This document shows, piece after piece, positions 4,323-58,200 of a stretch of 64,000 bases of DNA. Position 1 is the stretch's first letter. The number at the start of each line of letters is the position of its first letter. Source of the stretch: Myxococcota bacterium (GTDB lineage Bacteria > Myxococcota_A > UBA796 > UBA2385); NCBI GenBank assembly GCA_044344255.1, contig JBIJDH010000022.1:76044-140043 (forward strand), given 5' to 3'. Made by a program: the position numbers and the translations under genes. The notes below the pieces were generated by a model. The model ran no database searches and was not told the DNA's origin. It was given only the letters and a program-made list of their open reading frames with translations.

Positions 4323-4491
4323 GGCGGGCTACCTCGTCCGATCAGCGGCGGGGTGGGAGGTCGACGTGGCAGTCTGACACGCGGGAGGCCGGGCCGTTCC
4401 CCCCGCGGCGCGGCGGCCTCGCCAAGGGGCTGTCAAGGGCAGGAGCCGACGCCGGGAGGCGACGACCGGGCAAGCTAGTTAGGTCCATGGG

Positions 4492-6830: not shown

Positions 6831-6831
6831 G

Positions 6832-8469: not shown

Positions 8470-8535
8470 CAACCCCGCCCGAGTCGGCCCGCACTCTCCG
8501 GTGGCGTTCCCCGTTTGCCGTGGCATGTTGTCCGA

Positions 8536-8574
8536 CCTGGACGACCGCCCTGGACGACCGCCCCTGGAGACGAC
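8536..8574. repeat. Short tandem repeat CCTGGACGACCGC x2 plus a degenerate third copy containing the RBS
   Basis: Exact copies at 8536-8548 and 8549-8561, then CCCTGGAGACGAC immediately before ATG 8575. Confidence 0.8.
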
Positions 8575-11736
<3,162 letters not shown>

Positions 11737-15672: not shown

Positions 15673-18588
15673 ATGCCCCCGGACGGCGACGCCTCGGCGA
15701 GAGACCCCCGCCGCCCTCGACGCCCCCCCATAGGCGCCCCCCTCCGCACGGGTCCCACCGGAATGGCCCTCCTCCCGCCCTCTCCCTCGCTGACCGAGCA
15801 CCTCTCCCTACAGTCCAAGGTCGGTGAGGGCCGCCTGGGCGCGGTCTGGCGGGCCTTCCACCGGGAGACCGGCCAGCCCGTCGCCCTCCGCGTCGTCTCG
15901 GACGCCGGGCTGGTCGATGACCGCCTCCGCCTCGCCTGGTGGCGAGAGATCCGCCAGGGCCTGACCACGCTCCACCCCTACCTCTGCACCACCTACGGCG
16001 GCGGTGTGCTCTCCGCCGACGACGCCCGGCGGACGCGGCTGCCCGAGGGCTCCCTGTGGATGGCGACCGAGTGGCTCGAGGGGCCCTCCCTGTACGGGCA
16101 GCGGCTCCCCACGCTGGAGGCCGCCCCCATCATCTCGGCGGTCCTCCGCGGCCTCGCCCACCTGCACGCCCGTGGCCTCCGCCACGGCGCCGTGCGCCTC
16201 GCCAACCTCCGCCGCCCGGGCCCCGGCGCCTTGCCGCGCCTCTGTGACGCCGGCATGGACCGAATCGAGGCGGTCATCCACGAGGGCGGCGACCTCGGCA
16301 GCATCCAGGGCCCCGTGCTGACCGACCTCCAGGCGACGGCCGAGCTCGTCGCCAACCTCATCCCGAGCCCGCGCAGCCCGGCGATCGAGCAGTGGATCAC
16401 CACCGCCCGCGGCAGCCGCAGCCGACGGCCGTTCACCCACGCCGCCGACGCCCGCCTCGCCTGGGAGGCCGCCGTGGGGCCAGCCGGCCGAGCGCCCGAC
16501 CGCAGCAGCCGCTCCCTGCCACGGCCGCTCCGCCTCGGGAGCCAGGAGCGCCCCTGGCCCTTGATCGGCCGGAAGACCGAGCAGGACGCGCTCATCGCCG
16601 CGCTCCGCCGCGTCCGCGCCGAGGGGCGGCCCCGGGCCGTCGTCGTCCTCGGCGCGCCCGGCGTGGGTCGCACCGCGCTCGTCCACGCGCTCTCCGTTCA
16701 GTCCGACGAGCAGGGCTTCGCGCGCTCCCTCATCGCCTTCCACGGCCCGATCACGACGCGCTCGCACGGCCTCACCGGCATGATCGCGCGCTTCCTCGCC
16801 ACCGACGGCATGGCCCCGCCCCTCTCCACCATCCGCGCCGAGTCCCGCCTCGCTGACCTCGGCATCGAGGAGGAGATGATCCGGCGCTTCGTCCCGATGT
16901 GGGTGGAGGACGGGCGCGGCGCGATGCCCGTGAGCCCGGTCGAGCAGACCGACCTCCTGCTCAGCCTCATCAGCCGCCTCGCCGCCGACAAGCCCGTCGT
17001 CATCCGCCTCGACGAGGCCCACTGGAGCCTCGAGGCCCTCGACTTCGCCGAGCAGCTCCTCTCCCGCGCCGGTGAGCTCAACCTGCCGGTCCTCCTGCTC
17101 ATCACGGTTCGCTCCGATCTCCTCTCCAAGCGGCCCGCCGAGGCCGAGCGGGTCGACCGCCTCCGCGCCCGCCCCGAGTGTGAGACGCTCGTGCTCGAGC
17201 CCCTCGATGCGGAGGCCCAGAAGGGCATCCTCGAGGAGCTGCTGCTGTTCAGCGGGCCCACCGCCCGGCGGCTCTCCGAGGCCGCGCAGGGGAGCCCCCT
17301 CTACCTCCACGCGCTCGTGGCCGAGCTCCGCCGCCAGGGGGCGCTCACCCAGCAGATCAGCGGCACCTGGGCCCGCGTGGACGACTCCGCTCCCCTGCCC
17401 GCCGATCTCGCCCAGATCTGGGAGCAGCGCCTCTCCCATCTCCTCGACGAGCTCGCCCCCGATCAGTCCGACGCCGTTGAGCTCGCCGCGGTCCTCGGCG
17501 GCCTGGTCGACCCCCACGAGTGGCGAGAGGTCTGCGCCAATGAGGGGGTCTCGGTAGACCCCGGCCTCGCCGAGATGCTGCTCCACCTCGACCTCGCCAC
17601 CCCCCTCTCCCGCGGCGCGCCGGGGGCCTGGTACTTCAGCCACGGCCTCGTCGTCCGCGCGATCATCCACCGCGCCGTGCGCCGCGGCAAGCTGGCCGAC
17701 CACCACCGCGCCGTCGCCCGCACCCTCGAGGCGCAGGTCGAAGACAAGAGCCCCCTCCGTCAGCTCCGGCGCTTCCGACATCGCCTCGCCGCCGGTGAGC
17801 TCGACGCCGTCTTCCCGGCCGCCCTCCGCCAGGCCCGCGACCACCTCACCGGCGGGCTGCTCCGCCCGGGCCTCGAGCTCACCGACCTCCTCTCCCGCGC
17901 GGTCGAGGCCACCGAGGGGCCGAAGCAGGCCGAGCGCCGCGCCTGGATCCAGACCCTCCTCGCCGAGGCCCGCCTCGTAGAGGGCCGCCCCGACGAGGCC
18001 GCCATCCTCCTGCACCGCACCGAGATCACGGCGCGGGCCCAGGGCTGGACCCACCTCCTCGTGCTCACCCTGCTGCTGCGGGTTCGGGCCGACCGCGCCG
18101 ACCGTGACGGCGACGCAGCGCGGGAGCGCCTCGCCGAGGCCGACCGCCTCCTCCAGCCCTCCGGCCCCTCCTGGCTCCGCGCCCGCACCCGCATGGCGGC
18201 GGCGCGCCAGGCCATGGCCCACGAGGACTGGGAGCAGGCCGCCGACGAGCTCGCCGAGGCCATCCCCCTCTGGGAGGAGGCCGGCGAGGCGACCGGCCTC
18301 GGCCAGTGCTGGCTCGACCTCTCCCGCCTCGCCTGGGTGGGCGGAGACCCCGCCGCGGCTCGCCGCTGGCGAGAGGCGGCCCAGCGCCACTTCGAGGCCT
18401 CCGGCGCCTGGCTGGGCCTCGCCGAGGTGCGCACTGTGGCGGGAGATCAGCTCCGCCTGCAGGGCGACCTCGCCGGGGCCCGGGCCTCCTACGCCGCCGC
18501 CCTCCGCCTCGCTGACACCATTGGGATCCCGGGCCTCTTCGAGGCGGAGGTCGGCCGCGCCCTGCTGGCCCTGTCTTCCGCAGAGTGA
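15673..18588 (+). CDS. Pseudokinase + AAA/STAND-like NTPase + TPR protein
   Basis: Kinase-like N-terminus (GEGRLGAVW, VALR, HGAVRLAN, LCDAG), P-loop-like GAPGVGRT, Walker B VIRLDEAHW, GSPLYL and helical repeats at the C-terminus. Start may be 15763. Confidence 0.8.
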   Translation: MPPDGDASARDPRRPRRPPIGAPLRTGPTGMALLPPSPSLTEHLSLQSKVGEGRLGAVWRAFHRETGQPVALRVVSDAGLVDDRLRLAWWREIRQGLTTLHPYLCTTYGGGVLSADDARRTRLPEGSLWMATEWLEGPSLYGQRLPTLEAAPIISAVLRGLAHLHARGLRHGAVRLANLRRPGPGALPRLCDAGMDRIEAVIHEGGDLGSIQGPVLTDLQATAELVANLIPSPRSPAIEQWITTARGSRSRRPFTHAADARLAWEAAVGPAGRAPDRSSRSLPRPLRLGSQERPWPLIGRKTEQDALIAALRRVRAEGRPRAVVVLGAPGVGRTALVHALSVQSDEQGFARSLIAFHGPITTRSHGLTGMIARFLATDGMAPPLSTIRAESRLADLGIEEEMIRRFVPMWVEDGRGAMPVSPVEQTDLLLSLISRLAADKPVVIRLDEAHWSLEALDFAEQLLSRAGELNLPVLLLITVRSDLLSKRPAEAERVDRLRARPECETLVLEPLDAEAQKGILEELLLFSGPTARRLSEAAQGSPLYLHALVAELRRQGALTQQISGTWARVDDSAPLPADLAQIWEQRLSHLLDELAPDQSDAVELAAVLGGLVDPHEWREVCANEGVSVDPGLAEMLLHLDLATPLSRGAPGAWYFSHGLVVRAIIHRAVRRGKLADHHRAVARTLEAQVEDKSPLRQLRRFRHRLAAGELDAVFPAALRQARDHLTGGLLRPGLELTDLLSRAVEATEGPKQAERRAWIQTLLAEARLVEGRPDEAAILLHRTEITARAQGWTHLLVLTLLLRVRADRADRDGDAARERLAEADRLLQPSGPSWLRARTRMAAARQAMAHEDWEQAADELAEAIPLWEEAGEATGLGQCWLDLSRLAWVGGDPAAARRWREAAQRHFEASGAWLGLAEVRTVAGDQLRLQGDLAGARASYAAALRLADTIGIPGLFEAEVGRALLALSSAE

Positions 18589-20435
18589 GTGAAGAGCCGC
18601 AAGACGCCGGTCCCCTGGCGCCCGGCGCTGAGCTCGGCCGCTTCCGCGTGGTGGAGCTCGTGGGGGAAGGCGCGATGGCGCGGGTGTACCGGGTGCGCCA
18701 CCGCGCCCTCAGCACCGAGCACGCCGTCAAGCTGCTGCGGAGCGCCGATCCGTCCCTCCGCCAGCGCCTCCTCCAGGAGGCCCGTGTCCAGGCGCGCATC
18801 CGCCACGACCACGTCGTCGCGGTCACCGACGTCCTCGAGCACGAGGGCCTGCCCGCCATTGTCATGGAGTACGTGGCCGGCCGCTCGCTCGACCGCCGTC
18901 TCCACGAGGACGGCCCGCTGCCGCTCGACGTGGCCCGCCGTGTCTTCTCCGAGGTGCTCGACGCGGTGGGCGCCGCCCACGCGGCGGGCGTGCTCCACCG
19001 CGACCTCAAGCCGGGCAACGTCCTCCTCGCGGAAGAGGGCGAGCGCCTCATCGCGAAGGTCACCGACTTCGGCATCGCCAAGCTCGTCGCGGCCCCGGTC
19101 CGCGCCGACGAGACCCGCCACGGCGCCGCGATGGGCACCCCCGGCTACATGGCCCCCGAGCAGTGGGCCGACGCCCACTCTGTCGACGTCCGGGCCGACG
19201 TCTTCGGGCTCGGCGCGCTCTTCTACGAGTCGCTGACCGGCAAGACCCCCTTCGTCGGTCCGAGCCTCTTTACGGTGATGAAGCGCACCCTCGCGGGCGA
19301 ACACGCGCCCCTCCGCGAGGGGCGCCCGGACTGCCCCCCCGCGCTGGCGGAGGCCATCGAGCGGGCCCTTCGCCCCTCCCCCGAGGCGCGGTACCCCGAC
19401 GTCGCCGCCTTCCGTCGGGCGCTCGAGGCCGCGTGGACCCAGCCCGACGTCCCCACCGAGGCCCCCGCCACGGCCCCCGAGCCCGTGGCCGAGACACCCC
19501 AGCCTGAGACCCTCCAGCCTGAGACACTCCAGCCCGAGGCGCTCGAGCCCGAGGCGCTCGAGCCCGAGCCACCCCAGCCCGAGCCTCCCGCTCGCGCGCG
19601 CCGGCCGCGCAGCCCGCTTTGGCTGGGCCTCTTTGTGCTGCCGATCGGGCTGTTGGTCTTCGCCGGCCTCTCCGCCGCCGGGGTCGCCGCCTGGTGGTGG
19701 AAGGGGGCGAGCCCGGTCCGCCGAGCCGCCGAGCCGATCGAGCCTCCCCCACCCCTCGCAGCGCCCGCGCCCCCAACCCCGGTGGTCTTCATCCCCGCCG
19801 GTGAGCTCCTCCAAGGTGAGGCCGGCCGCCCGGTGAGCGTCGCCGCCTTCCAGCTCGACCGTTGGGAGCTGAGCGTGCTCCGTTACGACGAGTGCCACGC
19901 CGCCGGGGCCTGCAGCCGGCTCGCCGGCCCCGCTCCCACCTCCACCGAGCTGCCCGCTCGCGGCCTCTCTTGGGACCAGGCCTACACGGTCTGCGCCTAC
20001 GAAGGCGGGCGACTGCCCACGGAGGCCGAGTGGGAGCGCGCGGCCGCCACCAGCCCGGAGCCCGGCCCGCGGCGAAGCTGGCCCTGGGGAGAGGCGCCCC
20101 CCGACTGTGAACACGCCCAGCACTCCGCCTGCAGCCCCCCGGGGCCCGTGGTCGTCGACGCCCTGCCCCAGAGCGCCAGCGCCTGGGGGGTCGAGCAGCT
20201 CGCGGGCAACGTCTGGGAGTGGACCGCCAACCGGACCGCCAAGGGCCGCAGGGCCGGGCTCTTTCGCAAGGCCACAGAAGACCGCTACGCCCTCCGCGGC
20301 GGCGACTGGAGCTCGGACCCCGACGAGCTCAGCCCCACCGCCCGCCGATCCGCCGACCACGACGATCACAGCTCCGCCTTCGGGGTGCGCTGCGCCTATG
20401 ATGCCGGGGCCCAGCCCCGCCGGAGCCCCCCTTGA
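18585..20435 (+). CDS. Membrane Ser/Thr protein kinase with C-terminal FGE/SUMF1-like domain
   Basis: GEGAMARVY, AVK, HRDLKPGN, DFGIAK, GTPGYMAPEQ, a TM segment, then RLPTEAEWERAA, LAGNVWEWT, RGGDW and GVRCA. Confidence 0.93.
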   Translation: MSEEPQDAGPLAPGAELGRFRVVELVGEGAMARVYRVRHRALSTEHAVKLLRSADPSLRQRLLQEARVQARIRHDHVVAVTDVLEHEGLPAIVMEYVAGRSLDRRLHEDGPLPLDVARRVFSEVLDAVGAAHAAGVLHRDLKPGNVLLAEEGERLIAKVTDFGIAKLVAAPVRADETRHGAAMGTPGYMAPEQWADAHSVDVRADVFGLGALFYESLTGKTPFVGPSLFTVMKRTLAGEHAPLREGRPDCPPALAEAIERALRPSPEARYPDVAAFRRALEAAWTQPDVPTEAPATAPEPVAETPQPETLQPETLQPEALEPEALEPEPPQPEPPARARRPRSPLWLGLFVLPIGLLVFAGLSAAGVAAWWWKGASPVRRAAEPIEPPPPLAAPAPPTPVVFIPAGELLQGEAGRPVSVAAFQLDRWELSVLRYDECHAAGACSRLAGPAPTSTELPARGLSWDQAYTVCAYEGGRLPTEAEWERAAATSPEPGPRRSWPWGEAPPDCEHAQHSACSPPGPVVVDALPQSASAWGVEQLAGNVWEWTANRTAKGRRAGLFRKATEDRYALRGGDWSSDPDELSPTARRSADHDDHSSAFGVRCAYDAGAQPRRSPP

Positions 20436-27275: not shown

Positions 27276-28142
27276 TCAGCCGCCCCCGCCGCCTCCGGCA
27301 CCCGCAGCGGGACCCTTGGCCTCCTTGGGCAACCAGAGCGTCGTGGCGAGGCCCGCGCGCCGGAGCGCCCGGAGGCACCACCACGTGGGGTCAAAGCCGC
27401 CGTGGAGGCCGTGGCAGGCGCTGCGCGGGTAACGGTGGTGGGCGTTGTGGTAGGCCTCGCCGAGCGTGAAGGGGGCGAGCCAGGGAACGTCCCGCGAGCC
27501 CTCGCCGGTGTCGTAGGGGGCCCGCCCGAAGGCCGCGCCGTGGCAGATCGAGTTCACGGCCCAGCTCGAGTTGGTCAAGCAGAGGTGCAGGGCCCACAGC
27601 CAGAGCAGCCCCGCCGGCCCGGCGAGCCACCACAGGGCGCTGAGCTGCAGGGTGAAGAGGGAGACCGTCAGGAGGGGCCGCTCGAGGGCCATCAGGACAC
27701 GATCCTCGCGGAGGTCCTTACAGAGCTCCAGCCAGACCGGCGGGTTCCGGCCTTGGAGGCGGCGGATGTCGTGGAGCAGCGTCAGTGCCTGCTGGCCGAA
27801 GCCCGAGGCCGCGAAGAGCAGGATCGGCAAGGCCCCCAGCCGCCGCCCGAAGGCCCGCTCGAGCAGCCAGCCGGCGTGCGCCTGGAGGAGCCCGCCGTTC
27901 ACCGGGCTGTGCGGGTCTCCCGGGCCGTCGCTCTCGAGGTGGTGGTGCCGATGGAGCCCGATCCACAAGAGCGGCGGCCCCGCGTGCAGCGCCCCCAGCA
28001 GCGCGAGCGCCGCCCGCAGCGCCGGCCGCGCCGTGAAGGCCCGGTGCGTGAAGAGCCGGTGGTAGCCGAGGGTGTTGCCGAGCCCGAGCGCCACGAAGGC
28101 GGGCAGGAAGCTGGCCATCAGGAGCGCGGTCGTCGTCGTCAT
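27276..28142 (-). CDS. Membrane fatty-acid desaturase (delta-9-like)
   Basis: Three His boxes (YHRLFTH, HRHHH, HNAHH), DPHSP, VNSICH and FDPTWW. GGAG upstream of ATG 28142. Confidence 0.9.
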   Translation of the reverse strand: MTTTTALLMASFLPAFVALGLGNTLGYHRLFTHRAFTARPALRAALALLGALHAGPPLLWIGLHRHHHLESDGPGDPHSPVNGGLLQAHAGWLLERAFGRRLGALPILLFAASGFGQQALTLLHDIRRLQGRNPPVWLELCKDLREDRVLMALERPLLTVSLFTLQLSALWWLAGPAGLLWLWALHLCLTNSSWAVNSICHGAAFGRAPYDTGEGSRDVPWLAPFTLGEAYHNAHHRYPRSACHGLHGGFDPTWWCLRALRRAGLATTLWLPKEAKGPAAGAGGGGGG

Positions 28143-28333
28143 GTGTCTCCGCCCCTCCCCGGCGGCCGGCCGGCCCCCGACCGAGCCTAAGCCGTCGGCG
28201 CCGCCCCGCCCCGTGCGCGCGCCGGCCCCTCGGATGAGCGGCCGGTGAGCGGCGCGGGGCCGATCGATGCGCGCGCGCATCCCTGTCCACGCTCGTCCCA
28301 CAAACAAACGCCCGTTTTTCACGAGGGTGGCGG

Positions 28334-28349
28334 TGGCACGCACCTTGCT
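28334..28349 (+). promoter_or_regulatory. Sigma-54 (-24/-12) promoter
   Basis: TGGCACG-CACC-TTGCT matches TGGCACG-N4-TTGCW exactly (GG 28335-36, GC 28347-48). It lies about 90 nt upstream of the halogenase ATG, on the coding strand. Confidence 0.85.
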
Positions 28350-28441
28350 CACACCCTCTGCGACGGCGCACCGGCGCACTCTCCCTCTCCACTTTTCCCT
28401 CTCTCCATCACTCCCTCTGTCCATCCAGTCAGGAGCACACC

Positions 28442-30085
28442 ATGTCCGAGTCTATTCGAAATGTCCTCATCGTCGGCGGCGGGACCTCGGGATGGATGAC
28501 GGCCGCCTATCTGCGCCGCGCCCTGCCGGCGGGCGTAGCGATCACGGTGGTCGAGTCGGACCGCGTGCCCACCATCGGGGTCGGCGAGGCCACCTTCAGC
28601 ACCATCAAGCTCTTCTTCGACTACCTCGGCCTCGAGGAGCGCGAGTGGATGCCCGAGTGTAACGCCACCTACAAGATGGCCATCCGCTTCGCCGGCTGGA
28701 ACGCCGAGGGCCGCGACTTCTATCACCCTTTCCAGCGGTACGAGACGGTGGACGGCTTCTCGATCGCCGACTGGTGGCTCCGCCTGCACAAGGACAAGCC
28801 CTTTGACCGCATGTGCTTCGCCATCCCCGAGCTCTGTGAGAGCAAGCGCTCGCCCCGCTTCCTCGACGGGGAGGTCTTCGACCCCACCGTGCAGCACGCC
28901 TTCCGCCGCGAGCACATCGAGCAGCAGAACATGCTCGGCGAGCACAAGATCCAGTACCCCTATGCCTATCACTTCGACGCCGCCCTCCTCGCCCGCTTCC
29001 TGATGAAGCGCACCGTCGCCGACGGCGTCCGCCACATCCTCGACGACGTCACCCACGTCGGCCTCCGCCCGGACGGCGCCATCGGCCACATCGAGACGCA
29101 GAAGCACGGCCGCCTCGAGGCTGACCTCTACATCGACTGCACCGGCTTCGCCGGCCTGCTCATCAACAAGGCGCTCGGCACCCCCTTCATCTCGTTCAAT
29201 GACACGCTCCTCTGCGATCGCGCCGTGGCGATGCAGGTCCCCGAGGACATCGAGGACGAGGGCATTCGCCCCTACACCACCGCGACGGCCCTGTCCGCCG
29301 GCTGGGCCTGGAACATCCCGCTCTATGGCCGAAAGGGCACCGGCTACGTGTACTCGAGCCGCTTCATCAGCCCCGAGCAGGCCGAGGCCGAGCTGCGCAG
29401 CCACCTCGGCCCCGCCGCCGACGGCCTCAAGGCCAACCACATCCGCATGCGCATCGGCCGCAGCCAGGACGCTTGGGTGAAGAACTGTGTCGCCATCGGC
29501 CTCTCCAGCGGCTTCGTCGAGCCCCTGGAGTCGACCGGCATCTTCTTCATCCAGCACGGCATCGAGCAGCTCGTCACCCACTTCCCCACCAAGGACTTCG
29601 ACCCGAGCCTCATCCGCAGCTACAACCGCGGCGTCGGCGAGTGTATCGACGGCGTGCGCGACTTCCTCACGCTGCACTACTACGCCAGCACCCGCGCCGA
29701 CACGCCCTTCTGGAAGGCCACGAAGGAGGTCACCATCCCCCCGGCGCTGGCCGAGCGCCTCGCCCTCTGGAAGCAGCGCCTCCCCGACGCCATGAGCATC
29801 AACCCCGCCTACCACGGCTTTGAGGCCTACTCCTACTCGGTGATGCTGCTCGGCCTCGGCTACGTGCCCGAGGGCCCCCAGCCCGCGGTCGCCGGCGCCG
29901 ATCCCCGCCGGGCCGAGGCCGCCTTCGCCCGGCTGCGCGCCCGCACCCGCTCCCTCGTGGACAAGCTCCCCAGCCAGTTCGAGTACCTCAGCCACGTGAG
30001 CGAGTCCCGAGGCGAGCTCTCTCAGGGCGGGATGCGGCTCTATCGCCGCCCGGTCGGCGCCGAGCAGGCCGAGGCCCGGTCGTGA
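28442..30085 (+). CDS. Flavin-dependent tryptophan halogenase, PyrH/SttH (5-/6-halogenase)-like
   Basis: AGGAG RBS; GGGTSGWMTA, GVGEATFST, catalytic-Lys region CNATYKMAIRF, YPYAYHFDA, WAWNIP (WxWxIP), FVEPLESTGIFFI and YHGFEAYSY. Confidence 0.93.
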   Translation: MSESIRNVLIVGGGTSGWMTAAYLRRALPAGVAITVVESDRVPTIGVGEATFSTIKLFFDYLGLEEREWMPECNATYKMAIRFAGWNAEGRDFYHPFQRYETVDGFSIADWWLRLHKDKPFDRMCFAIPELCESKRSPRFLDGEVFDPTVQHAFRREHIEQQNMLGEHKIQYPYAYHFDAALLARFLMKRTVADGVRHILDDVTHVGLRPDGAIGHIETQKHGRLEADLYIDCTGFAGLLINKALGTPFISFNDTLLCDRAVAMQVPEDIEDEGIRPYTTATALSAGWAWNIPLYGRKGTGYVYSSRFISPEQAEAELRSHLGPAADGLKANHIRMRIGRSQDAWVKNCVAIGLSSGFVEPLESTGIFFIQHGIEQLVTHFPTKDFDPSLIRSYNRGVGECIDGVRDFLTLHYYASTRADTPFWKATKEVTIPPALAERLALWKQRLPDAMSINPAYHGFEAYSYSVMLLGLGYVPEGPQPAVAGADPRRAEAAFARLRARTRSLVDKLPSQFEYLSHVSESRGELSQGGMRLYRRPVGAEQAEARS

Positions 30086-31269
30086 TCGCCGCCGACCGCG
30101 CGGTGGGCTCGGCCCGCGCTCGACAGATGCCGATGCCGCCCATCCGCGCCATCTTCGAGGCCGCCTCCCGCATGGAGGACATCGTGCGCCTCGAGGTGGG
30201 CGAGCCGGACTTCGGCCCCCCCGCCTGGCTCCGCGAGGCCCACATCGACGCGCTGCGGCGCGACAGCTCGCACTACACCTCCTTCAGCGGCCTCCTGGCC
30301 CTGCGCGAGGCCATCGCCCAGAAGCTGGCACGAGAGAACGGGATCACCCGGGACCCGGCGACCGAGATCCTCGTCACCTCGGGGGCCACCGGCGCGCTCT
30401 ATCAGGCGCTCCAGGCCACCGTGGACCCGGGCGATGAGGTGCTCCTCCCGGCGCCGGGCTGGCCCCAGTACATGGCGTCTACGGCCCTCGCGGGCGGCGT
30501 GCCGGTCTTCTATCCGCTACACGCGGCCAATGGTTTCGTCCCGCGGGCCGAGGACATTGCGCGCCTCATCACCCCGCGCACCCGCGTCCTCCTGCTCAAT
30601 TCGCCCGGGAACCCGACCGGCGGCGTGATCGACGCCGCGACCCTCCAGGCGCTCGCCGCCCTCGTCCAGCAGCACAACCTCGTGCTCATCTCCGACGAGG
30701 TCTATGAGCACATCCGCTTCGACGGGGCGGCGCACCTGAGCCCGGCCGCGCTCCCGGGGATGGCCGAGCGCACCCTCACGCTCCACAGCGCGTCCAAGAC
30801 CTTCGCGGTCACCGGCTGGCGCATCGGCTTCGCCGCCGGCCCCGCCGCCCACATCGGGCCGATGACGAAGATCGGCCTCTCCACCTGCACCCACCCGAGC
30901 ACCCCCGCCCAGCACGCCTGTGTGGCGGCCTATCGACGGAGCGCGGAGGGGGACATCTCCCGGATGGTCGACACGCTCCGGCAGCGGCGGGACTTCCTCT
31001 GTGACAGCCTCTCCGCGATGCCCGGCCTCCGCTGCACCCGGCCCGCCGGCGCCTTCTATGTGTTCGTGAACATCGAGGGCACCGGGCTCGACTCCGAGAG
31101 CCTCTCCTGGCACCTGCTCCGCAGCGCCGGCGTCTCGACCGTGCCCGGGGTCGGCTTTGGCCCCGGGGGAGAGGGCTTCATCCGCCTCTCCTTCGCCGCC
31201 TCGATGACCGAGCTCGAGCGGGGGGTCGAGCGGATCCACCGGGCGCTCTCCCAGCTCGCGCACGGCTGA
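30082..31269 (+). CDS. PLP-dependent class I/II aminotransferase
   Basis: GTGA overlap with the halogenase stop; LEVGEPDF, LNSPGNPTG, ISDEVYEH, SASKTFAVTGWRIG (PLP Lys), PAGAFY and IRLSFA. Confidence 0.93.
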   Translation: MIAADRAVGSARARQMPMPPIRAIFEAASRMEDIVRLEVGEPDFGPPAWLREAHIDALRRDSSHYTSFSGLLALREAIAQKLARENGITRDPATEILVTSGATGALYQALQATVDPGDEVLLPAPGWPQYMASTALAGGVPVFYPLHAANGFVPRAEDIARLITPRTRVLLLNSPGNPTGGVIDAATLQALAALVQQHNLVLISDEVYEHIRFDGAAHLSPAALPGMAERTLTLHSASKTFAVTGWRIGFAAGPAAHIGPMTKIGLSTCTHPSTPAQHACVAAYRRSAEGDISRMVDTLRQRRDFLCDSLSAMPGLRCTRPAGAFYVFVNIEGTGLDSESLSWHLLRSAGVSTVPGVGFGPGGEGFIRLSFAASMTELERGVERIHRALSQLAHG

Positions 31270-31322
31270 GCGCCCTCTCGCCCCGCCCCTCTCGCCTCCT
31301 CCCCTCCGCCTCCGGAGCCGTC

Positions 31323-32459
31323 ATGTTCAGCCTCTCGCTCGACGCCACCCCCGCCTACTCCCCTCGCTCCGCGGCCCCCTCCCTCTCCGCGCGCCTGCAA
31401 GCCGCCGCGCGGCTGGTCGACGCGCAGGACCCCGCCGCCGAGGCCGCGCTCGCGGCGCTCCGCTCCGACACGGAGGCCGCGCAGGGCCCCGAGGAGCGGC
31501 TCGCCCGCCTCTTCTTGGGTGCGCTCGAGGCGCGGCGGGCGGGCCTCGCCGCCGACCTCGGCAACCTCTACGGCGGCGGCGCCGGCCCCGCCGAGATGCT
31601 CGGCGCCTTCGAGGCCTTCGTCCAGGACACCCCGCTCGTCCGCTTTGCACACCACGCCGCCAACGCGGCCCACCTCGCGGCCATCGGCGACGCCGCCGCC
31701 GTCCGCATCATCGACGTCGGCCTCGGCTTCGGCAGCCAGTGGGAGCCCCTCCTCCAGGCCCTCGCCCGCCGCCCCGGCGGCCCGCCCGCGGTGCACCTCG
31801 TCGGCATCGACCTCCCCGCCCCCGGGGCAGACCCGGCCGCCGGGCTCACCGCGGTCGGGGCCCGCCTCGCTCGCCTCGCCGAGGGCTGCGGCGTACCCTT
31901 CACCTTCACCGCGCTCCCCGGGCGCGTCGAGGACCTGCCGCTGCCCGAAGTCGAGCCCGGCGAGCGCCTCACCATCAACGCCGCCTTCGCGCTCCACCAC
32001 ACCGGCCCCCTCGATCGCGACCCCACGCTGGCGCGCCTCGCGGCCACCGGCGCCCACGCCATCGTGCTCTGCGAGCCCGAGGCGGACCACGACGCGCCGG
32101 CCTTCCCGGCCCGCCTCCGCGCCGCGCTCCGCCACTACGGGCTCGTCTTCGACGTCCTCGACCGCTGCCTCCGCGAGCGCCCGGCCGCCCGGGCCGTCAT
32201 CGAGGGGCAGTTCTTCGGTCGCGAGATCCACAACGTCGTCGTCGGCGAAGGCGCCGCGCGGGTCGAACGCCACGCGCCCCACGCCGACTGGTCCCGCCGC
32301 CTCCGGGCCGCCGGCCTGTCGCCGGTCTCCCTCCGCACGAGGCCGGACAGCCAGCTCCGGCTCCCCGACGGCGTCGCGGTGGTGCCCCTGGGCTCGGCCA
32401 CGGCCCTCACCGTGGATGGAGAGCCCCTGGTGGTGGTCTCGGCGTGGCAGCCGAACTGA
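31323..32459 (+). CDS. Stand-alone bacterial GRAS-domain protein
   Basis: GRAS motifs in order: ERLARLFLGALEAR (LHRI); PLVRFAHHAAN and VRIIDVGLGFGSQWEPLLQALARRPGGPPAVHLVGID (VHIID); GARLARLAEGCGVPFTF (LHRII); RLRAALRHYGLVFDVLD (PFYRE); REIHNVVVGEGAARVERH...WSRRLRAAG; terminal VSAW. GGAG RBS. Confidence 0.93.
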   Translation: MFSLSLDATPAYSPRSAAPSLSARLQAAARLVDAQDPAAEAALAALRSDTEAAQGPEERLARLFLGALEARRAGLAADLGNLYGGGAGPAEMLGAFEAFVQDTPLVRFAHHAANAAHLAAIGDAAAVRIIDVGLGFGSQWEPLLQALARRPGGPPAVHLVGIDLPAPGADPAAGLTAVGARLARLAEGCGVPFTFTALPGRVEDLPLPEVEPGERLTINAAFALHHTGPLDRDPTLARLAATGAHAIVLCEPEADHDAPAFPARLRAALRHYGLVFDVLDRCLRERPAARAVIEGQFFGREIHNVVVGEGAARVERHAPHADWSRRLRAAGLSPVSLRTRPDSQLRLPDGVAVVPLGSATALTVDGEPLVVVSAWQPN

Positions 32460-52320: not shown

Positions 52321-54387
52321 GTGCCCGCCGGCCGCCGCCTCGGCCTCGCCCTCTGCGTCGCGCTCTCCCTCCTCCACGGCTGTCGGGAGGGCGGTGACAA
52401 GGGCGGGGGCGCACCGGGCGGCGACGGCGACAGCGGGGAGGACACTGGCCCCGTCGGCGGAGACGCGCGCTACTCCCTGCTCCCCGACGGCCGGCTCAAC
52501 CACCTCCTGCCGCAGTACATCGGGCTCGACCGAGACAGCCGCCGGCTTTACTTCACCTCGAACGCCTCCCGCACCCTGGCGGCGGTCGACGTGGACGCCG
52601 GCGAGCTGCTGGGCGTCTACCCCTTGCCCGACACCGCCCAGCCGCGGACGGGCCTGCGGGTCGATTACACGGGCCTCGTCTGGGTGAGCGCTGGGGCCGA
52701 GCCCGCCCTCACCCGCTTTGACCCCGCCACCGGCGAGGCCACCGCCGTCGACAGCGGCCTCGTCGCCATCGCCGGCCTCGCCCGGCGGCCGGAGGGCGGC
52801 GTGGTGGCGCTCGGGGCCACCGCGGTCGAGGGTGAGTCGGCGATGGTGGTGATCGATCCCGACGGCGCCGTGCTCACGTCGGTCCCGGTCACTCGCTCCA
52901 CCTTCGGCTTCTCCGAGTCCGGGCGCGGCCAGGTCGCCGTCCTCGAGGCCCAGGGGAGCCACCTGCCGAGCGTGCTCCGCCTGCTCGACCCCGACGACCT
53001 CTCCGAGCAGGGCCGCGTCGCCGCCGAGGACCTCGTCGAGCACCCCGGCACCTTCGCGCCGCTGGTCGACCTCGGCGAGGGTCGTTTCGCCGCCGTCTGG
53101 GGCGACACGCTCCTCGTCATCGACGGTGACACCAACACCTGGACGCTGCGCGCCGAGGGCACCGAGAACAAGTCGGCCGTGCCGGTCGAGGGCGGGCTGC
53201 TCGTCTTCGACCGCCTCTCCGCCGACCCCGCCACCGCCCCGCTCCACGGCGAGCTGCGCGCTTACGACGACGACCTCAACCCGCTCGGCGAGGCCCTGCC
53301 CACCGGCAAGAACACCGGCTACGCCACGCTCGACCCCTTGACCGGGCTCGTCTGGATAAACTCCGAAGGCAGCACGGAGGTCCTGGCGATGGACCCTGCG
53401 AGCGGCGAGGTCCGCCTCCGAGTGCGCTCGGGCGAGCACCTCGAGAGCGTGGCCGCCCTCGCGGCCGCCGACGGCGAGGCCGCCGACGACGCGGAGGAGG
53501 CCGACGCCGTCTGGTTCACCGGCCGGCTCACCAACACCGTCGGGCGCATCGACCTTCAGACCGGCGCCACCACCGTGACCGAGGCGCTGACCTGGCCGGT
53601 GGCGCCGCTGCTCCAGGGCGGCGCGCTCTACGTCGTCACCCAGATGAGCAACGAGCTCGTCACCCTCGACCCCGACACGCTCGCCGTCCGCGCCTCGGTG
53701 CCCCTCGACCTCACGCTCAACGGCACGCTCACCTTCGACGACCTCGCGGGAGACCCGGCCCGCGGCAGCCTCTTCCTCAGCCAGACCCTCGACCATGTCC
53801 TGGTCGAGCTCGACGCCGCCACCGGCCTCGAGCGTGGCCGCTGGGCGCTCTCGGGCGCGGCCCCCACCGACGAGGACAAGCCCGGGCACGATCAGCTCAT
53901 GGCCATCGGCCCCCGCTGGCTCGTGCTCTGCACCCACTCGGGCGAGGCCACCCTGATCGACCCCGATCGCGCCCTGGCCGAGCCCCTGCCCGTCCCCGAG
54001 GCCCTGCGCCGCAGCCTCAGCCGGGCCGCCCGCTTCGAGCACCTCTCGCCCGTGCTGAGCGTCGGCAGGGGCCACTTCTACATCGACGGCGTCGCCTTCA
54101 ACGCGAGCACCTTCGAGCCCGCACCCGCCTACGACGTCGACGCCGATCTGCTCATCGGCGAGCTCGACGGCCAGCGTCTCGCCTACGCCGGGTCCGACGG
54201 GGGTGAGCTGCGCCTCCTCGACGAGGCCGGCGCGGTCATCGCACGTCGGGCGCTCGGCCTCGGCGCCGACGCGGCGCCCACCTTCACGCTCCAAGTCTCT
54301 GGCGGCCGGCCGCGGCTCATCGTCTCCGACTTCGAGACCGCCGCCGTCTCCGTCCTCGACCTCCGCGACCTCGCCGCAGGCGGCTGA
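52321..54387 (+). CDS. Beta-propeller (YncE/Vgb-like) lipoprotein
   Basis: Lipobox LHGC and repeated beta-strand/DPATG-type blades. Starts immediately after the previous stop. Confidence 0.7.
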   Translation: MPAGRRLGLALCVALSLLHGCREGGDKGGGAPGGDGDSGEDTGPVGGDARYSLLPDGRLNHLLPQYIGLDRDSRRLYFTSNASRTLAAVDVDAGELLGVYPLPDTAQPRTGLRVDYTGLVWVSAGAEPALTRFDPATGEATAVDSGLVAIAGLARRPEGGVVALGATAVEGESAMVVIDPDGAVLTSVPVTRSTFGFSESGRGQVAVLEAQGSHLPSVLRLLDPDDLSEQGRVAAEDLVEHPGTFAPLVDLGEGRFAAVWGDTLLVIDGDTNTWTLRAEGTENKSAVPVEGGLLVFDRLSADPATAPLHGELRAYDDDLNPLGEALPTGKNTGYATLDPLTGLVWINSEGSTEVLAMDPASGEVRLRVRSGEHLESVAALAAADGEAADDAEEADAVWFTGRLTNTVGRIDLQTGATTVTEALTWPVAPLLQGGALYVVTQMSNELVTLDPDTLAVRASVPLDLTLNGTLTFDDLAGDPARGSLFLSQTLDHVLVELDAATGLERGRWALSGAAPTDEDKPGHDQLMAIGPRWLVLCTHSGEATLIDPDRALAEPLPVPEALRRSLSRAARFEHLSPVLSVGRGHFYIDGVAFNASTFEPAPAYDVDADLLIGELDGQRLAYAGSDGGELRLLDEAGAVIARRALGLGADAAPTFTLQVSGGRPRLIVSDFETAAVSVLDLRDLAAGG

Positions 54388-54412
54388 GGCTGGTCCCCCG
54401 CGGCGCGCGGCC

Positions 54413-55081
54413 TCAGAGCCAGGCGTAGGCCGCGCGGAGGGCCTCCTTGCCGTCGGCCTCGAGGAGTGCGCCGTGGGCGAGCACCACCTTGTCGATGTCC
54501 CACGCGAGCATCCGGTCGACCTCCCGCCGCGCGACCCGCCGATCGCGCACCATCAGCGGCTCCATCCAGCCGAGGCCGGGCCCGCGGTTGCCCATCAGCC
54601 CAGCGACGAAGCGGGTGGAGGCGTAGTCGTGCGTCGAGAGGTTGAGCAGCGCGTCGGCGCAGATGAAGGTGCGGCTCTTCGGGTGGTAGAAGTCGACCTC
54701 GTCCTCCCGCCGCGCCGAGAAGTAGACCTGCTGCAGATCGGCCGCCCAGCGTTCGTGCGGCCTGTCGCCGAGCACGAGGTGAAAGGCGAGGTCGGGCCTC
54801 TTCTTCGCGAGCCCCGGGCAGCCGCCGTAGACGGCGTCCGGGTAGGCCCGCAGCCAGTCGCCGACGTGCAGGTGGTGGAAGCGGCTCGGCGCCACCACCG
54901 CCCGCACCGGGCCGAGCGTGTCGATCGCCGCGCGCAGCTCGGGGTCGAGGGCCACGGGCGAGTGGATGAAGAGCCCGCCGTCGGCGAGGCGGACGACGGT
55001 CATGCGCGTGCCGGTCTCGAGCCCAAAGAAGCGGACGCGGCGGGCGACGACCCAGAGGTCTTCGGCGAAGGGGGTGAGCAT
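54413..55081 (-). CDS. DUF4336-family (metallo-beta-lactamase-like fold) protein
   Basis: TRMTVVRLADGGLFIHSP, VAPSRFHHL, FYHPKSRTFICAD and VLAHG. Confidence 0.85.
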   Translation of the reverse strand: MLTPFAEDLWVVARRVRFFGLETGTRMTVVRLADGGLFIHSPVALDPELRAAIDTLGPVRAVVAPSRFHHLHVGDWLRAYPDAVYGGCPGLAKKRPDLAFHLVLGDRPHERWAADLQQVYFSARREDEVDFYHPKSRTFICADALLNLSTHDYASTRFVAGLMGNRGPGLGWMEPLMVRDRRVARREVDRMLAWDIDKVVLAHGALLEADGKEALRAAYAWL

Positions 55082-55231
55082 CTCCGCATCCTACCTGAGG
55101 GCAGGGGCCGCTGCAGGGGGCCAGAGCTGGGCGCCGCCCGACCCCTGACCGACCGCCCGCCCTTCCCATCAGGTCAGGCTCGCCACCCCCCCCGCGCCGG
55201 TGGTAAACCCACGGCCTGCCTCGGAGCCTCG

Positions 55232-58200
55232 ATGTCCCGCCCTGTAGAGCCCATCGCCATCATCGGCCTCGCCTGCCGTTACCCGGGCGCGCCCGACGCC
55301 CGAGCGCTCTGGGAGAACATCCTGGCTCGACGCCAGCAGTTCCGGCAGATGCCCGACTGCCGGCTGCCGATCGCCGACTACCACAGCCTCGACCGGGCGG
55401 TGGAGGATGTGACCTACGGCAAGCGGGCCGCGGTCATCGATGGTTGGAGCTTCGATCCGGCCGCCCATCGGGTGCCCCGCTCCTCCTTTGAGTCCACCGA
55501 TGTGGTGCATTGGCTCACCCTCGACATCGCCAAACAGGCGGTGGAGAGCGCCGGCCTCAACCTCGACGGCATGGACCGCGACCGCATCGGCATGGTCCTC
55601 GGCAACACGCTCACCGGAGAGGAGACCCGCGCCAACACCATGCGCCTCCGCTGGCCCACGCTCCGGCGGGCGCTCCGCCACGCCGCGCTCGCCACCGGCC
55701 TCGACCCCGACGAGGGCCCTGAGCTGGAGCTGGCGCTCGAACAGACCTGGAAGAGCATCTTCCCGCGGATCACCGAGGACTCCCTGGCCGGCGGCCTCGC
55801 CAACACCATCGCCGGGCGGGTGTGCAACGTCCTCGATCTGCACGGCGGCGGCTGGGTGGTGGACGGAGCCTGCTCCTCCTCGCTGCTCGCCGTAGCCACC
55901 GCCGCCGAGCTCATCGCCTCCGGCCAGCTCGACATCGCGCTCTGCGGCGGGGTCGACGTCAGTCTCGACCCATTCGAGCTCGTGGGCTTCGCCAAGGCCA
56001 CCGCGCTCTCGGCCGGCGACATGAACGTCTATGACAAGCGCGGCAAGGGCTTCATCCCGGGCGAGGGCTGCGGCGTGGTGGTGCTCCAGCGCCTCGACCA
56101 CGCGCGCCGTGACGGACATCCGGTGCTGGCCCAGCTGCGCGGCTGGGGCATCTCCTCGGACGGGAAGGGGGGCATCACCGCGCCCTCTGCCCGCGGTCAG
56201 GCCCTCGCCCTCCGTCGGGCCTACGAGCGGGCCGGCTACAGCCCGCACAGCCTCGACTTCGTCGAGGGCCATGGCACCGGCACCGCGGTGGGCGACCGCG
56301 TCGAGCTCGAGGGCATCTCGGAGGCCGTCGACGCCTTCGGGGAGAAGCGGAGCCGGAGCATCGGCGTCACCTCCTTCAAGTCGATCGTGGGCCACACCAA
56401 GGCGGCGGCGGGCATCGGCGGCTTCATCAAGGCGGTGCTCGCGGTGAACCAGCGGGTGGTCCCTCCCACCGCCGGCTGTGTCGAGCCCCACACGGTCTTC
56501 GGCGAGCGGGCCCGGGCGCTCTACCCGGTGCTGCGCGGCGAGCAGCGCCCCCTCACGGACCGCCTGCGGGCCGGCGTGTCGGCGATGGGCTTCGGCGGCA
56601 TCAATTCCCACGTGACCTTGGAGAGCGGCGACGCGCCCGACCCCGCCTTCGCCCTCGGCCGCGACCCCTCCACCCTCAAGCCCTGGGAGTCGGAGGTCTT
56701 CCCGATAGCGGCGCCGAGCCGGGAGGCCCTGCTCGCCGCAGCTCAGGCCCTCTCCCTGGACGCCGCCGGCATCTCCGTCGCCGAGCTCGGCGACCTCGCC
56801 ATCCGCACCGCCGCCCGGCTCGGGCAGGGGCCCTGCCGCGCCGCGGTCGTCGCCTCCAGCCCCGATGAGCTGGTGGCGGCCCTCGGGGCCCTCCTGGTGC
56901 GGCTCCAGAGCGGTGAGCCGCTGGAGATCGATCGAAAGGTGGGCCTCTTCGCCGGGGCCAGAGCGACCGGCGAGGTCGATGCTGCGCCCCGCGTGGGCTT
57001 CCTCTTCCCCGGTCAGGGCTCCCAGCTCCTCGGCATGGCCGGCGGCCTCCTCGACCGCTACGCCTGGGCCCGGGAGCTGGCCGCGGAGGCCGATGGCTGG
57101 GTCGCGGGTTTCCCCGCCTTTCAGGCGGAGCCACTCTCCGCCTTCATGCAGCGTCCCACCTGGCGGGACCCCGCGGGTGAGTCCCAGGCCGAGTGGAAGG
57201 CGGCCCTCACCCGCACCGAGGTGGCCCAGCCGGCGATCGCGCTGGCATCGCTGCTCTGGTTCGAGCTGCTCCGTCGTGTGGGCCTGTCCCCCGCCGTGAC
57301 CGGCGGCCACAGCCTGGGCGAGCTCATGGCCCTCTGCGCCTCGGGGGCCTTCGACGCCGCCACGCTCCTGCAGATCGCGGCCCTGCGCGGCCAGGCCATG
57401 GCCGCACCCGCTGCTGACGCGGGCACGATGGCGGCCCTCGTCTGCGACCCCGCGCTCGCGCTCTCGCTCTTGGAGGGGACGGCCGCGGTGCTGGCCAACC
57501 GAAACTCCCCCGAACAGTGTGTGGTCTCCGGCACCCTCGCGGACGTGGAGCGGGTGGTGGAGCGGGCGGCCGCCGCGGGGCTCCGCGCTCGGCGCCTCAC
57601 CGTGTCGAACGCCTTTCACTCCCCCCTGGTCGCCGCCGCCGCCGCCCAGGTGGCCGCCGACCCGCGTGTCCCCCGCCGGGCCGCGGGGCTTACAACCACA
57701 ACCCTCTCCTGCACCGATGGGGCGCCGTTCTCCGCCGATGCCGACCTCCGGGCCCACCTCGGTCGTCAGATCACGGCCCCGGTCGACTTCATCCGCCTCG
57801 CCGCCGCGATGGCCGAGTCGGCCGACCTCCTCATCGAGGTGGGCCCCGGTCGGGTGCTCTCCGGGCTCGTGGAGCGCTGCGCGGTGGGCCGCGCTTGCCT
57901 GCCCGCGGAGGGACAGCCTGGGCGAGACCGCGACGCCGCGCTGCTCTTCGCGGAGGCCTTCACCCGCGGCTGCGACCTCTCCTGGTCTGCCCTCTACGAG
58001 GGGCGGTTCGCGCGGCCCTTCGTCCCCGCCCGCGAGCTGCACTTCTACGAGAACCCCTGCGAGCGGCCCTTCGCCCGGGTGGTGCTGCCCGAGCTTCAGG
58101 CCCTCCCCCGCGCGCTGCGCCTCCGCCCGGGGGGCCGGGCCTCGGGGCAGCTCGGCGAGCTCGTCACCCTGCTCAGCACCGCGCTCTCGGCCACCCACGT

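Follow-up and report, generated by a model that had tools for sequence, protein, structure and literature searches.

A predicted S-adenosylmethionine-dependent GRAS-domain protein encoded in one block with a tryptophan halogenase and an aminotransferase in a Myxococcota genome

The 64,000-nucleotide stretch of Myxococcota DNA analysed here (the window; assembly GCA_044344255.1, contig JBIJDH010000022.1, positions 76,044 to 140,043) encodes a protein of the GRAS family as the last of three co-directional genes, which follow one another in the order tryptophan 5/6-halogenase, aminotransferase, GRAS (Table 1). The stop codon of the halogenase gene and the start codon of the aminotransferase gene overlap by 4 bases, and no terminator-like site was found on the forward strand between 27900 and 32700; a sigma-70 promoter scan of the block region, uninformative for this organism, returned 0 sites. 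Upstream of the block lies a divergent gene for a fatty-acid desaturase, and downstream a convergent DUF2330 gene.

Table 1. Features of the halogenase-aminotransferase-GRAS block (positions are those of the window)
Feature	Position	Strand	Basis
Flavin-dependent tryptophan halogenase, first gene	28442..30085	+	PF04820, E 1.2e-146
Pyridoxal phosphate (PLP)-dependent class I/II aminotransferase (AspC/aromatic type), second gene	30082..31269	+	PF00155, E 6.1e-70
53-base spacer ahead of the GRAS gene, with GGAG six bases before ATG	31270..31322	+	sequence reading
GRAS-domain protein, 378 amino acids (aa), third gene; predicted S-adenosylmethionine (SAM)-dependent methyltransferase	31323..32459	+	PF03514, E 8.6e-64
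VRIIDVGLGFG, beta1 and glycine-rich loop (motif I of class I methyltransferases)	31701..31733	+	direct reading, residues 127-137
VGID, end of beta2, with acidic D163	31800..31811	+	residues 160-163
TINAAFALHH, beta4 and the loop behind it, with N219, H225 and H226	31971..32000	+	conservation count
RVERH motif, residues 313-317	32259..32273	+	direct reading

The closest solved relatives of the halogenase are a tryptophan 6-halogenase (5hy5, E 1.1e-189) and a tryptophan 5-halogenase (2wet, E 4e-188), both of which act on free tryptophan; all the solved relatives deposited as tryptophan 5- or 6-halogenases (5hy5, 2wet, 8fov, 6nsd and 5lv9, presumably including the enzymes named SttH, PyrH, Tar14 and Th-Hal) match it over the full length with E of 1e-181 to 1e-189. 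Its translation contains VGGGTSGW, GWAWNIP and a GVGEAT...K stretch, which we take to be the GxGxxG, WxWxIP and GVGEAT...K motifs with their usual roles in such halogenases. Sequence alone does not distinguish action at C5 from action at C6. Among solved structures, an aromatic aminotransferase (1dju, E 1.8e-90) is the best match to the aminotransferase, ahead of aspartate aminotransferases; no NCBIfam model matches it above the cut-off of that model, and it carries an SASK...GWRIG stretch that we assume to be the PLP-lysine motif. The same three genes occur in the same order in a second Myxococcota metagenome-assembled genome (MAG; locus L002), with identities of 87% for the halogenase, 83% for the aminotransferase and 77% for the GRAS protein, whereas the flanks differ: the desaturase and DUF2330 genes were not found there, and a kinase-WD40 gene lies downstream. 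Since the block is shared while its surroundings are not, the three genes form a conserved unit.

The third gene is free of internal stops, and PF03514 covers residues 24-376 of its product from profile position 4 to 374 of 374 (216.2 bits; cut-off 27). No further Pfam family matches the protein even at E<=10, so it consists essentially of the GRAS domain only; no NCBIfam model matches it either. Just 23 residues precede the domain, and a plant-type N-terminal regulatory region, as in DELLA proteins, is absent. VRIID (residues 127-131), RVERH and SAW (residues 373-375) correspond to what we take to be the VHIID, RVER and SAW signatures of the family; VRIID runs into motif I, with D131, G133, G135 and G137, the segment QWEPLLQALARRPGGPP occupies residues 139-155, and D163 presumably stands at the ribose-contacting position of class I methyltransferases. 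The resemblance is one of homology rather than a chance motif. An earlier note, made from the nucleotide sequence without database searches, had described a GRAS-only frame of 378 codons with VRIIDVGLGFG, QWEPLLQALARRPGGPP, VGID, RVERH and SAW where they are found here; both the frame and the highly significant PF03514 match bear out that description.

The same note had judged the gene to be native, and it is. Contamination by plant or algal DNA, or a recent transfer from a plant to a bacterium, would account for the approximately 30% identity to plant GRAS proteins and for several motifs near the plant consensus, but is refuted by several lines of evidence: third-position GC of the gene (0.96) is like that of the neighbouring genes (0.91-0.95); the gene sits within bacterial DNA, on a contig at least 140 kb long, in a genome of 8.18 Mb (83 contigs, 95% complete, 2% contamination); the plant-type N-terminal region is missing; homologues reside on complete Sorangium chromosomes and in other bacteria; and plants form a single clade nested within bacterial GRAS diversity. 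Overall GC is 0.75 in the bin covering the larger part of the gene (window range 0.58-0.77), and the host genome has 1 GRAS copy. The closest relative in the homologue search, 75% identical, is a Myxococcota MAG protein by its source name, and Sorangium proteins annotated as 'GRAS-like transcription factor' are 41-42% identical.

An AlphaFold2 model of the GRAS protein, built on a 26-row alignment, is of high confidence (mean pLDDT 91.9, pTM 0.89) except in about 20 N-terminal residues. Strand beta1 (residues 126-132) enters the DxGxGxG loop; beta2 (residues 156-163) closes in D163; E203 follows beta3, and N219...LHH follows beta4. A glycine-rich loop after beta1 and an acidic end of beta2 are the canonical cofactor positions of the class I methyltransferase fold. 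A structural search of the model against representatives returned two tiers. The first consists of plant GRAS proteins (Z 39-40, root-mean-square deviation (rmsd) 2.1-2.6 A, 345-362 residues), namely SHR (5b3h_E, Z 40.2, rmsd 2.5 A, 362 residues), SCL3 (6kpd_C, Z 39.7), SCL7 (5hyz_A, Z 39.7) and RGA (9o4j_A, Z 39.0); the second is an unbroken run of about 45 different class I SAM methyltransferases at Z 14-18, led by CmoA (4gek, 18.1) and BelI (9fce, 18.0), many of them bound to SAM or S-adenosylhomocysteine (SAH) and overlaid from residue ~80-110 to 377-378. Foldseek gave the same two tiers, with 9o4j_A as best match (E 1.1e-28), and by sequence the window protein matches, among other entries of the Protein Data Bank, a DELLA protein (9x5i, E 1.1e-38) and SCL7 (5hyz, E 1.5e-36). 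Sub-threshold matches to Pfam methyltransferase families occur in distant bacterial GRAS proteins only: P0026 to Methyltransf_12 (E 0.011), and the protein of locus L041 to CheR (E 3.9e-4) and Methyltransf_28 (E 8.6e-4). A complex prediction for the window aminotransferase, the GRAS alignment and SAM, run without controls, gave no support (score 0.00, mark 0.32) and is uninformative on binding either way.

The distribution of the cofactor motifs differs between bacterial and plant members of the family. GRAS domains were pooled from a homologue search, a representative library (the best 150 of 1567 matches at E<=0.001), 55 genome loci and 19 metagenome loci; of 251 domain matches, the 242 covering at least 250 profile positions were kept, and one protein identical to that of the window (P0001), 18 near-identical Sorangium loci and exact duplicates were removed before counting. 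Plants were delimited as the FastTree clade (local support 1.0) in which the Spirogloea, DELLA and grass anchors fall, which gave 114 bacterial and 106 plant-clade domains; definitions of that clade as the most recent common ancestor under a midpoint root, or as the most recent common ancestor of all rows with a long N-terminus, produced mixed sets, and their counts were discarded. The combination of [DE]xGxGxG with an acidic beta2 end is present in 109 of the 114 bacterial domains and in 6 of the 106 plant-clade domains. Position by position, bacteria have D or E at D131 in 112, glycine at G133, G135 and G137 in 114, 112 and 112, and N219 in 111; the position of D163 is acidic in 113 bacterial and 75 plant-clade domains. 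Further residues near-invariant in bacteria are frequently lost in the plant clade: H225 (113 against 44), H226 (112 against 26), E251 (114 against 47), H256 (113 against 35), H271 (111 against 47) and H317 (111 against 38). Within RVERH, R313, E315 and R316 are found in 112, 110 and 112 bacterial domains; these three, together with R264 and W323, are retained in bacteria and plants alike.

Because 109 of the 114 bacterial members, from several phyla, keep the SAM-type motifs, selection on cofactor binding can be argued. The loss in plants of H225, H226, E251, H256, H271 and H317 would fit chemistry that plants gave up. Plant GRAS proteins have a large cavity whose wall is formed in part by the beta4-alpha9 and alpha11-alpha12 loops, and plant SHR/SCR, which lack the SAM motifs, bound neither SAM nor SAH by isothermal titration calorimetry, according to the available text of PMC5873383; by homology, the LHH and RVERH residues of the bacterial protein would line the corresponding cavity. 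The earlier note had suggested that the window protein might be a catalytically competent GRAS of ancestral type. Competence is plausible, with motif I and the beta2 acid intact on a class I fold, but an intact motif is the rule among bacterial GRAS proteins; the window protein is therefore no special survivor of an ancestral type and, as far as these motifs indicate, is a typical bacterial GRAS protein.

Linkage with aminotransferases was examined at 76 further loci, which were searched with nine aminotransferase queries, and 20 representative neighbourhoods were annotated by Pfam. A class I/II aminotransferase gene lies immediately upstream of the GRAS gene, on the same strand, at L002 and L003 (Myxococcota), L011 (Rhodothermales), L024 and L032 (a MAG of 37% GC); the last four of these loci belong to four deeply separated lineages, and L079, described below, adds a fifth with a same-strand aminotransferase gene 2.9 kb away. 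After clustering of 73 locus-encoded GRAS proteins at 60% identity, linkage of either kind was found in 5 of 20 clusters: in 5 of the 11 that belong to the same subgroup as the window protein, and in 0 of the 9 that form a distant subgroup (Corallococcus, Myxococcus and others). Unlinked clusters include Sorangium, Undibacterium, Kofleriaceae and an Acidimicrobiia MAG; as 6 of the 11 close-subgroup clusters are without a nearby aminotransferase, the coupling is frequent but not universal. The partner is of the HisC type (TIGR01141 above cut-off) at L003, L011 and L024 and in three single-chain fusions described below (P0039, P0046 and P0107), with a fourth fusion (P0028) just below the cut-off; the L032 aminotransferase has no NCBIfam match at E<=1e-45; and the AspC/aromatic type is found in the window and L002. 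The role of the partner has thus been kept across non-orthologous aminotransferases.

At L024 (4269-10444) the genes are ordered LysR, TauD/TfdA dioxygenase, a short opposite-strand open reading frame without a Pfam match, HisC-type aminotransferase, GRAS and MFS transporter, a layout that resembles a small biosynthetic cluster; the sequence of aminotransferase, GRAS and exporter we take to be comparable to the methyltransferase-aminotransferase-exporter layout of MrsABC. The contig has 73% GC, and its Enterobacteriaceae label looks doubtful. Locus L079, from a genome of the window's own family (G010), has its GRAS gene at 7661-8827 (-) and a HisC-type aminotransferase gene at 3668-4798 (-), 2.9 kb downstream, with a long open frame without a Pfam match between them. 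A weak aminotransferase-like match 4 kb away at L068 was left out of the linkage count. Apparent in-frame aminotransferase-GRAS fusions at L003 and L011 were rejected: the aminotransferase lies in another frame, and the long frame is an artefact of high GC.

Genuine fusions came from the representative search, which contained four single chains that begin with an aminotransferase and end with a GRAS domain: P0028 (720 aa), P0039 (716 aa), P0046 (751 aa) and P0107 (717 aa). The GRAS part of P0028 is 57% identical to the window protein. In a search with a profile of the four, the 120 matches listed include at least 48 clusters (90% identity; P0039, P0177-P0223) that contain PF00155 as well as PF03514, many of them from cultured Pontibacter and Botryobacter (Hymenobacteraceae) by their NCBI names, including records of 4.7-5.3 Mb. 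The four-fusion alignment shows no variation in the FSKA lysine stretch, in DLGxGxGxQW or in the beta2 aspartate, so both halves look functional. Near relatives of the fused aminotransferase outside the GRAS family include fusions to chorismate mutase and prephenate dehydrogenase, which may be a weak hint at aromatic amino-acid chemistry. Public records mostly call the ~715-aa fusions 'histidinol-phosphate transaminase', a name that hides the GRAS half.

A coincidental neighbourhood, in which a GRAS enzyme or binder is unrelated to the halogenase and the aminotransferase, would be in keeping with the unlinked majority of close-subgroup clusters and with a halogenase linkage seen in just two related genomes. 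It is made very improbable by the recurrence of aminotransferase linkage at six or more positions in the GRAS tree, with two non-orthologous aminotransferase types and with single-chain fusions in cultured isolates, as well as by the compact arrangement of the window genes (overlapping stop and start codons, 53 bases to the GRAS gene and no predicted terminator). 

A regulatory role is decidedly unlikely. The protein would then be a non-catalytic small-molecule binder like plant GRAS proteins, sensing the operon product or SAM and controlling other proteins, as might be expected from the fact that all characterised GRAS proteins are transcriptional co-regulators and from the plant domain, which retains a large cavity without binding SAM (available text of PMC5873383). 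The distant bacterial subgroup also offers a signalling context: 3 of its 9 annotated loci have a SpoIIE/PP2C phosphatase gene behind the GRAS gene (L033, 9091-10587; L037, 6420-7370; L041, 9457-10380), and a SpoIIAA-like gene lies nearby in L037, which points to signalling of the partner-switching type, unlike the aminotransferase context. The window protein, in contrast, belongs to a set of bacterial members that nearly all keep the SAM-type motifs, contains no DNA-binding or other regulatory domain and is encoded third behind two enzyme genes, and its relatives are fused to an enzyme in at least 48 clusters.

Fold, SAM-type motifs, operon and the repeated adjacency or fusion of aminotransferase and GRAS are observations; from them we infer SAM binding, a methyl acceptor, an order of steps and a product. 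The GRAS protein of the window is probably an active SAM-dependent enzyme that is functionally coupled to the aminotransferase; we lean towards a tryptophan-derived substrate, and beta-C-methylation of halo-indolepyruvate as the specific reaction is put forward tentatively, as one candidate that may well prove wrong. Because a halogenase of the free-tryptophan type stands ahead of the aminotransferase-GRAS pair, we propose a route from halotryptophan through halo-indolepyruvate to methylation: the halogenase would chlorinate or brominate free L-tryptophan at C5 or C6; the aminotransferase would convert halotryptophan to halo-indole-3-pyruvate; the GRAS enzyme would transfer the methyl group of SAM to halo-indole-3-pyruvate, most likely at the beta carbon; and the same aminotransferase could re-aminate the product to beta-methyl-halotryptophan.

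This route has a precedent in the beta-methyltryptophan cassette StnR/StnQ1/StnK3, in which, in the available text of PMC4742848, the PLP aminotransferase StnR acts twice, first transaminating tryptophan and finally re-aminating the indolepyruvate that the SAM-dependent StnQ1 has C-methylated in between, to give beta-methyltryptophan. The window block shares with cassettes of the StnR/StnQ1 type an aminotransferase gene beside a gene of the class I methyltransferase fold, in a tryptophan-directed context; it differs from them in that the methyltransferase belongs to the GRAS family, a halogenase is added and there is no cupin epimerase. Other systems for beta-methyl amino acids are MarG/MarI/MarH, MppJ, SgvM and MrsA/MrsB/MrsC. 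To our knowledge the GRAS family has never been assigned keto-acid C-methylation. The halogenase of the block is close, over its full length, to the solved flavin-dependent enzymes with free tryptophan as substrate. No nonribosomal peptide synthetase or other consumer of halotryptophan adjoins the block.

Several observations count against the proposed enzyme and route. The aminotransferase of the window resembles aspartate aminotransferases as well; no cupin epimerase is found among the Pfam matches of the block or its neighbours; the halogenase partner was seen only in the window and L002; the linkage is missing from the Sorangium, Undibacterium and other close-subgroup clusters mentioned above; no Pfam methyltransferase family matches the window GRAS protein at E<=10; the alpha-keto-acid C-methyltransferase SgvM (8ftr), with Z 15.6, falls inside the bulk of unrelated methyltransferases, so that the structure does not indicate the methyl acceptor; and the literature searched contains, as far as it goes, no biochemical evidence in print for any bacterial GRAS protein.

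An alternative is an active SAM methyltransferase that has another acceptor, methylating nitrogen (the amino group or the indole N of (halo)tryptophan) or oxygen (the carboxylate or enol of indolepyruvate or of a derived product). The evidence from fold, motifs and operon is identical for such an enzyme; the second structural tier mixes natural-product C-, N-, O- and S-methyltransferases without clear preference; and the missing cupin epimerase is a further point in its favour. We nevertheless consider this alternative unlikely, as the one-to-one fusion with an aminotransferase would be most simply explained if a labile keto acid were the shared intermediate, by analogy with the pathways to beta-methyl amino acids.

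Relationships within the family were examined with IQ-TREE (LG+C20+F+G4) on 67 chosen rows, 54 of them bacterial and 13 from the plant clade; the selection omitted near-duplicates and the majority of the plant rows. Plants form one clade (100/100) inside a polytomy of the closer bacterial subgroup, which with the plants comprises 60 rows and is separated from the distant subgroup at 100/99. P0002 and P0009 are the nearest neighbours of the window protein (100/100); the fusion P0028 joins this group next (96/58) and P0029 after it (100/99), and the aminotransferase-linked or fused rows occupy at least six separately supported positions. The tree does not settle the sister of the plant clade, and the window protein is no nearer to plants than other bacterial GRAS proteins are; it therefore has no special standing for the transfer from bacteria to plants. 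The suggestion of the earlier note that it is informative about this transfer does not hold: it belongs to a different, well-supported bacterial clade, and its score against the plant-built PF03514 (216 bits) is below those of the Sorangium proteins (294) and of the aminotransferase-fused forms (313-315). The gene is patchy among relatives: of 40 other genomes from the same family or order, many of which are incomplete, 2 have a GRAS match above the cut-off, as do 3 of 401 genomes searched in the phylum of L011, the genome of L011 included, with no fusion-length frame among the matches in those 401 genomes. 

Relative to plant GRAS proteins (DELLA/RGA, SCR, SHR, SCL3 and SCL7), the window protein has whole-length homology, the same fold at the Z scores given above and the VHIID-like, QW..LL.ALA.RPGGPP, RVER and SAW motifs; it differs in having no N-terminal regulatory region, in keeping DxGxGxG, the beta2 acid and the His/Glu set mostly lost in plants, and in being encoded in an enzyme operon, with no known partnership with transcription factors. 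Bacterial GRAS proteins were reportedly proposed as small-molecule methylases by Zhang, Iyer and Aravind in 2012, so that the idea of a methylase, which the earlier note had given as established, was indeed put forward before and is not new here. That study is cited in the available text of PMC4279901. Among the predicted bacterial GRAS methylases the window protein is typical (GRAS only, a myxobacterium-like genome, intact SAM-type motifs) and adds one more member to an enzyme class already known by prediction; what sets it apart is its halogenase-aminotransferase-GRAS context. The literature search, which left most subscription papers outside its reach, found no paper linking bacterial GRAS proteins with an aminotransferase beyond a single chance co-mention in a reference list, and none linking the GRAS family with a tryptophan halogenase. 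As far as we searched, neither the halogenase-aminotransferase-GRAS cassette nor the wide occurrence of aminotransferases next to or fused with GRAS is in print, and in this sense both are new; we think that this operon and recurrent linkage, absent from the earlier note, are the more informative lead.

Plant GRAS proteins (DELLA, SCARECROW, SHORT-ROOT, NSP1/2) are central regulators, and the family is thought to have been acquired from soil bacteria by one horizontal transfer (available text of PMC12448838 and PMC9942845). In the literature searched, neither a substrate nor an experiment was found for bacterial GRAS proteins, whose role remains a prediction. The operon and the widespread aminotransferase adjacency and fusion narrow the search to amino-acid and alpha-keto-acid chemistry, and the operon context makes bacterial GRAS function directly testable, with a three-gene cassette that can be expressed heterologously and natural fusion enzymes in cultured Pontibacter strains as material. 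If the proposed activity is real, a bacterial GRAS protein would for the first time have an assigned function, the enzymes for beta-branched or otherwise methylated aromatic amino acids would gain a new methyltransferase family, and the search for the former ligand of the plant GRAS cavity would have a place to begin. Indole-3-pyruvate is the direct precursor of auxin. A broader conjecture, which we regard as doubtful, is that the ancestral GRAS proteins methylated aromatic alpha-keto acids such as indole-3-pyruvate supplied by a partner or fused aminotransferase, that the plant cavity is a relic of an arylpyruvate/SAM site and that the window operon makes an undescribed halogenated beta-methyltryptophan or related indole metabolite; the hormone-linked GRAS regulators of plants would then descend from an enzyme that acted on the direct precursor of auxin.

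Some further features were noted in the family and in the window. P0058 (1486 aa) combines ankyrin repeats and a PARP catalytic domain with a C-terminal GRAS domain; it is sister to the GRAS proteins of Spirogloea muscicola in both trees and presumably comes from a streptophyte alga. Upstream of the block, the desaturase open reading frame as listed (27276-28424, -) starts about 94 codons too early, as the hydrophobic part begins near MTTTTALLMASF; with a start there, the divergent intergenic region ahead of the halogenase gene would be approximately 300 bases long. The only large synthase of the window, a multidomain protein of 3152 aa (KS, AT, KR, PS-DH) encoded at 54203-63661 (+), is 22 kb away, and no link to the block was seen. 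Positions 4001-8000 have a low GC of 0.58-0.65, compared with approximately 0.73 elsewhere, and may be a foreign island; this stretch contains a gene for an AAA_15/AAA_21 ATPase (4492-5688), and there is no confident gene from approximately 5700 to 8500. Directly behind a kinase-AAA_16 protein (15673-18588), a Ser/Thr kinase fused to an FGE-sulfatase (formylglycine-generating enzyme-like) domain is encoded at 18585-20435 (+).

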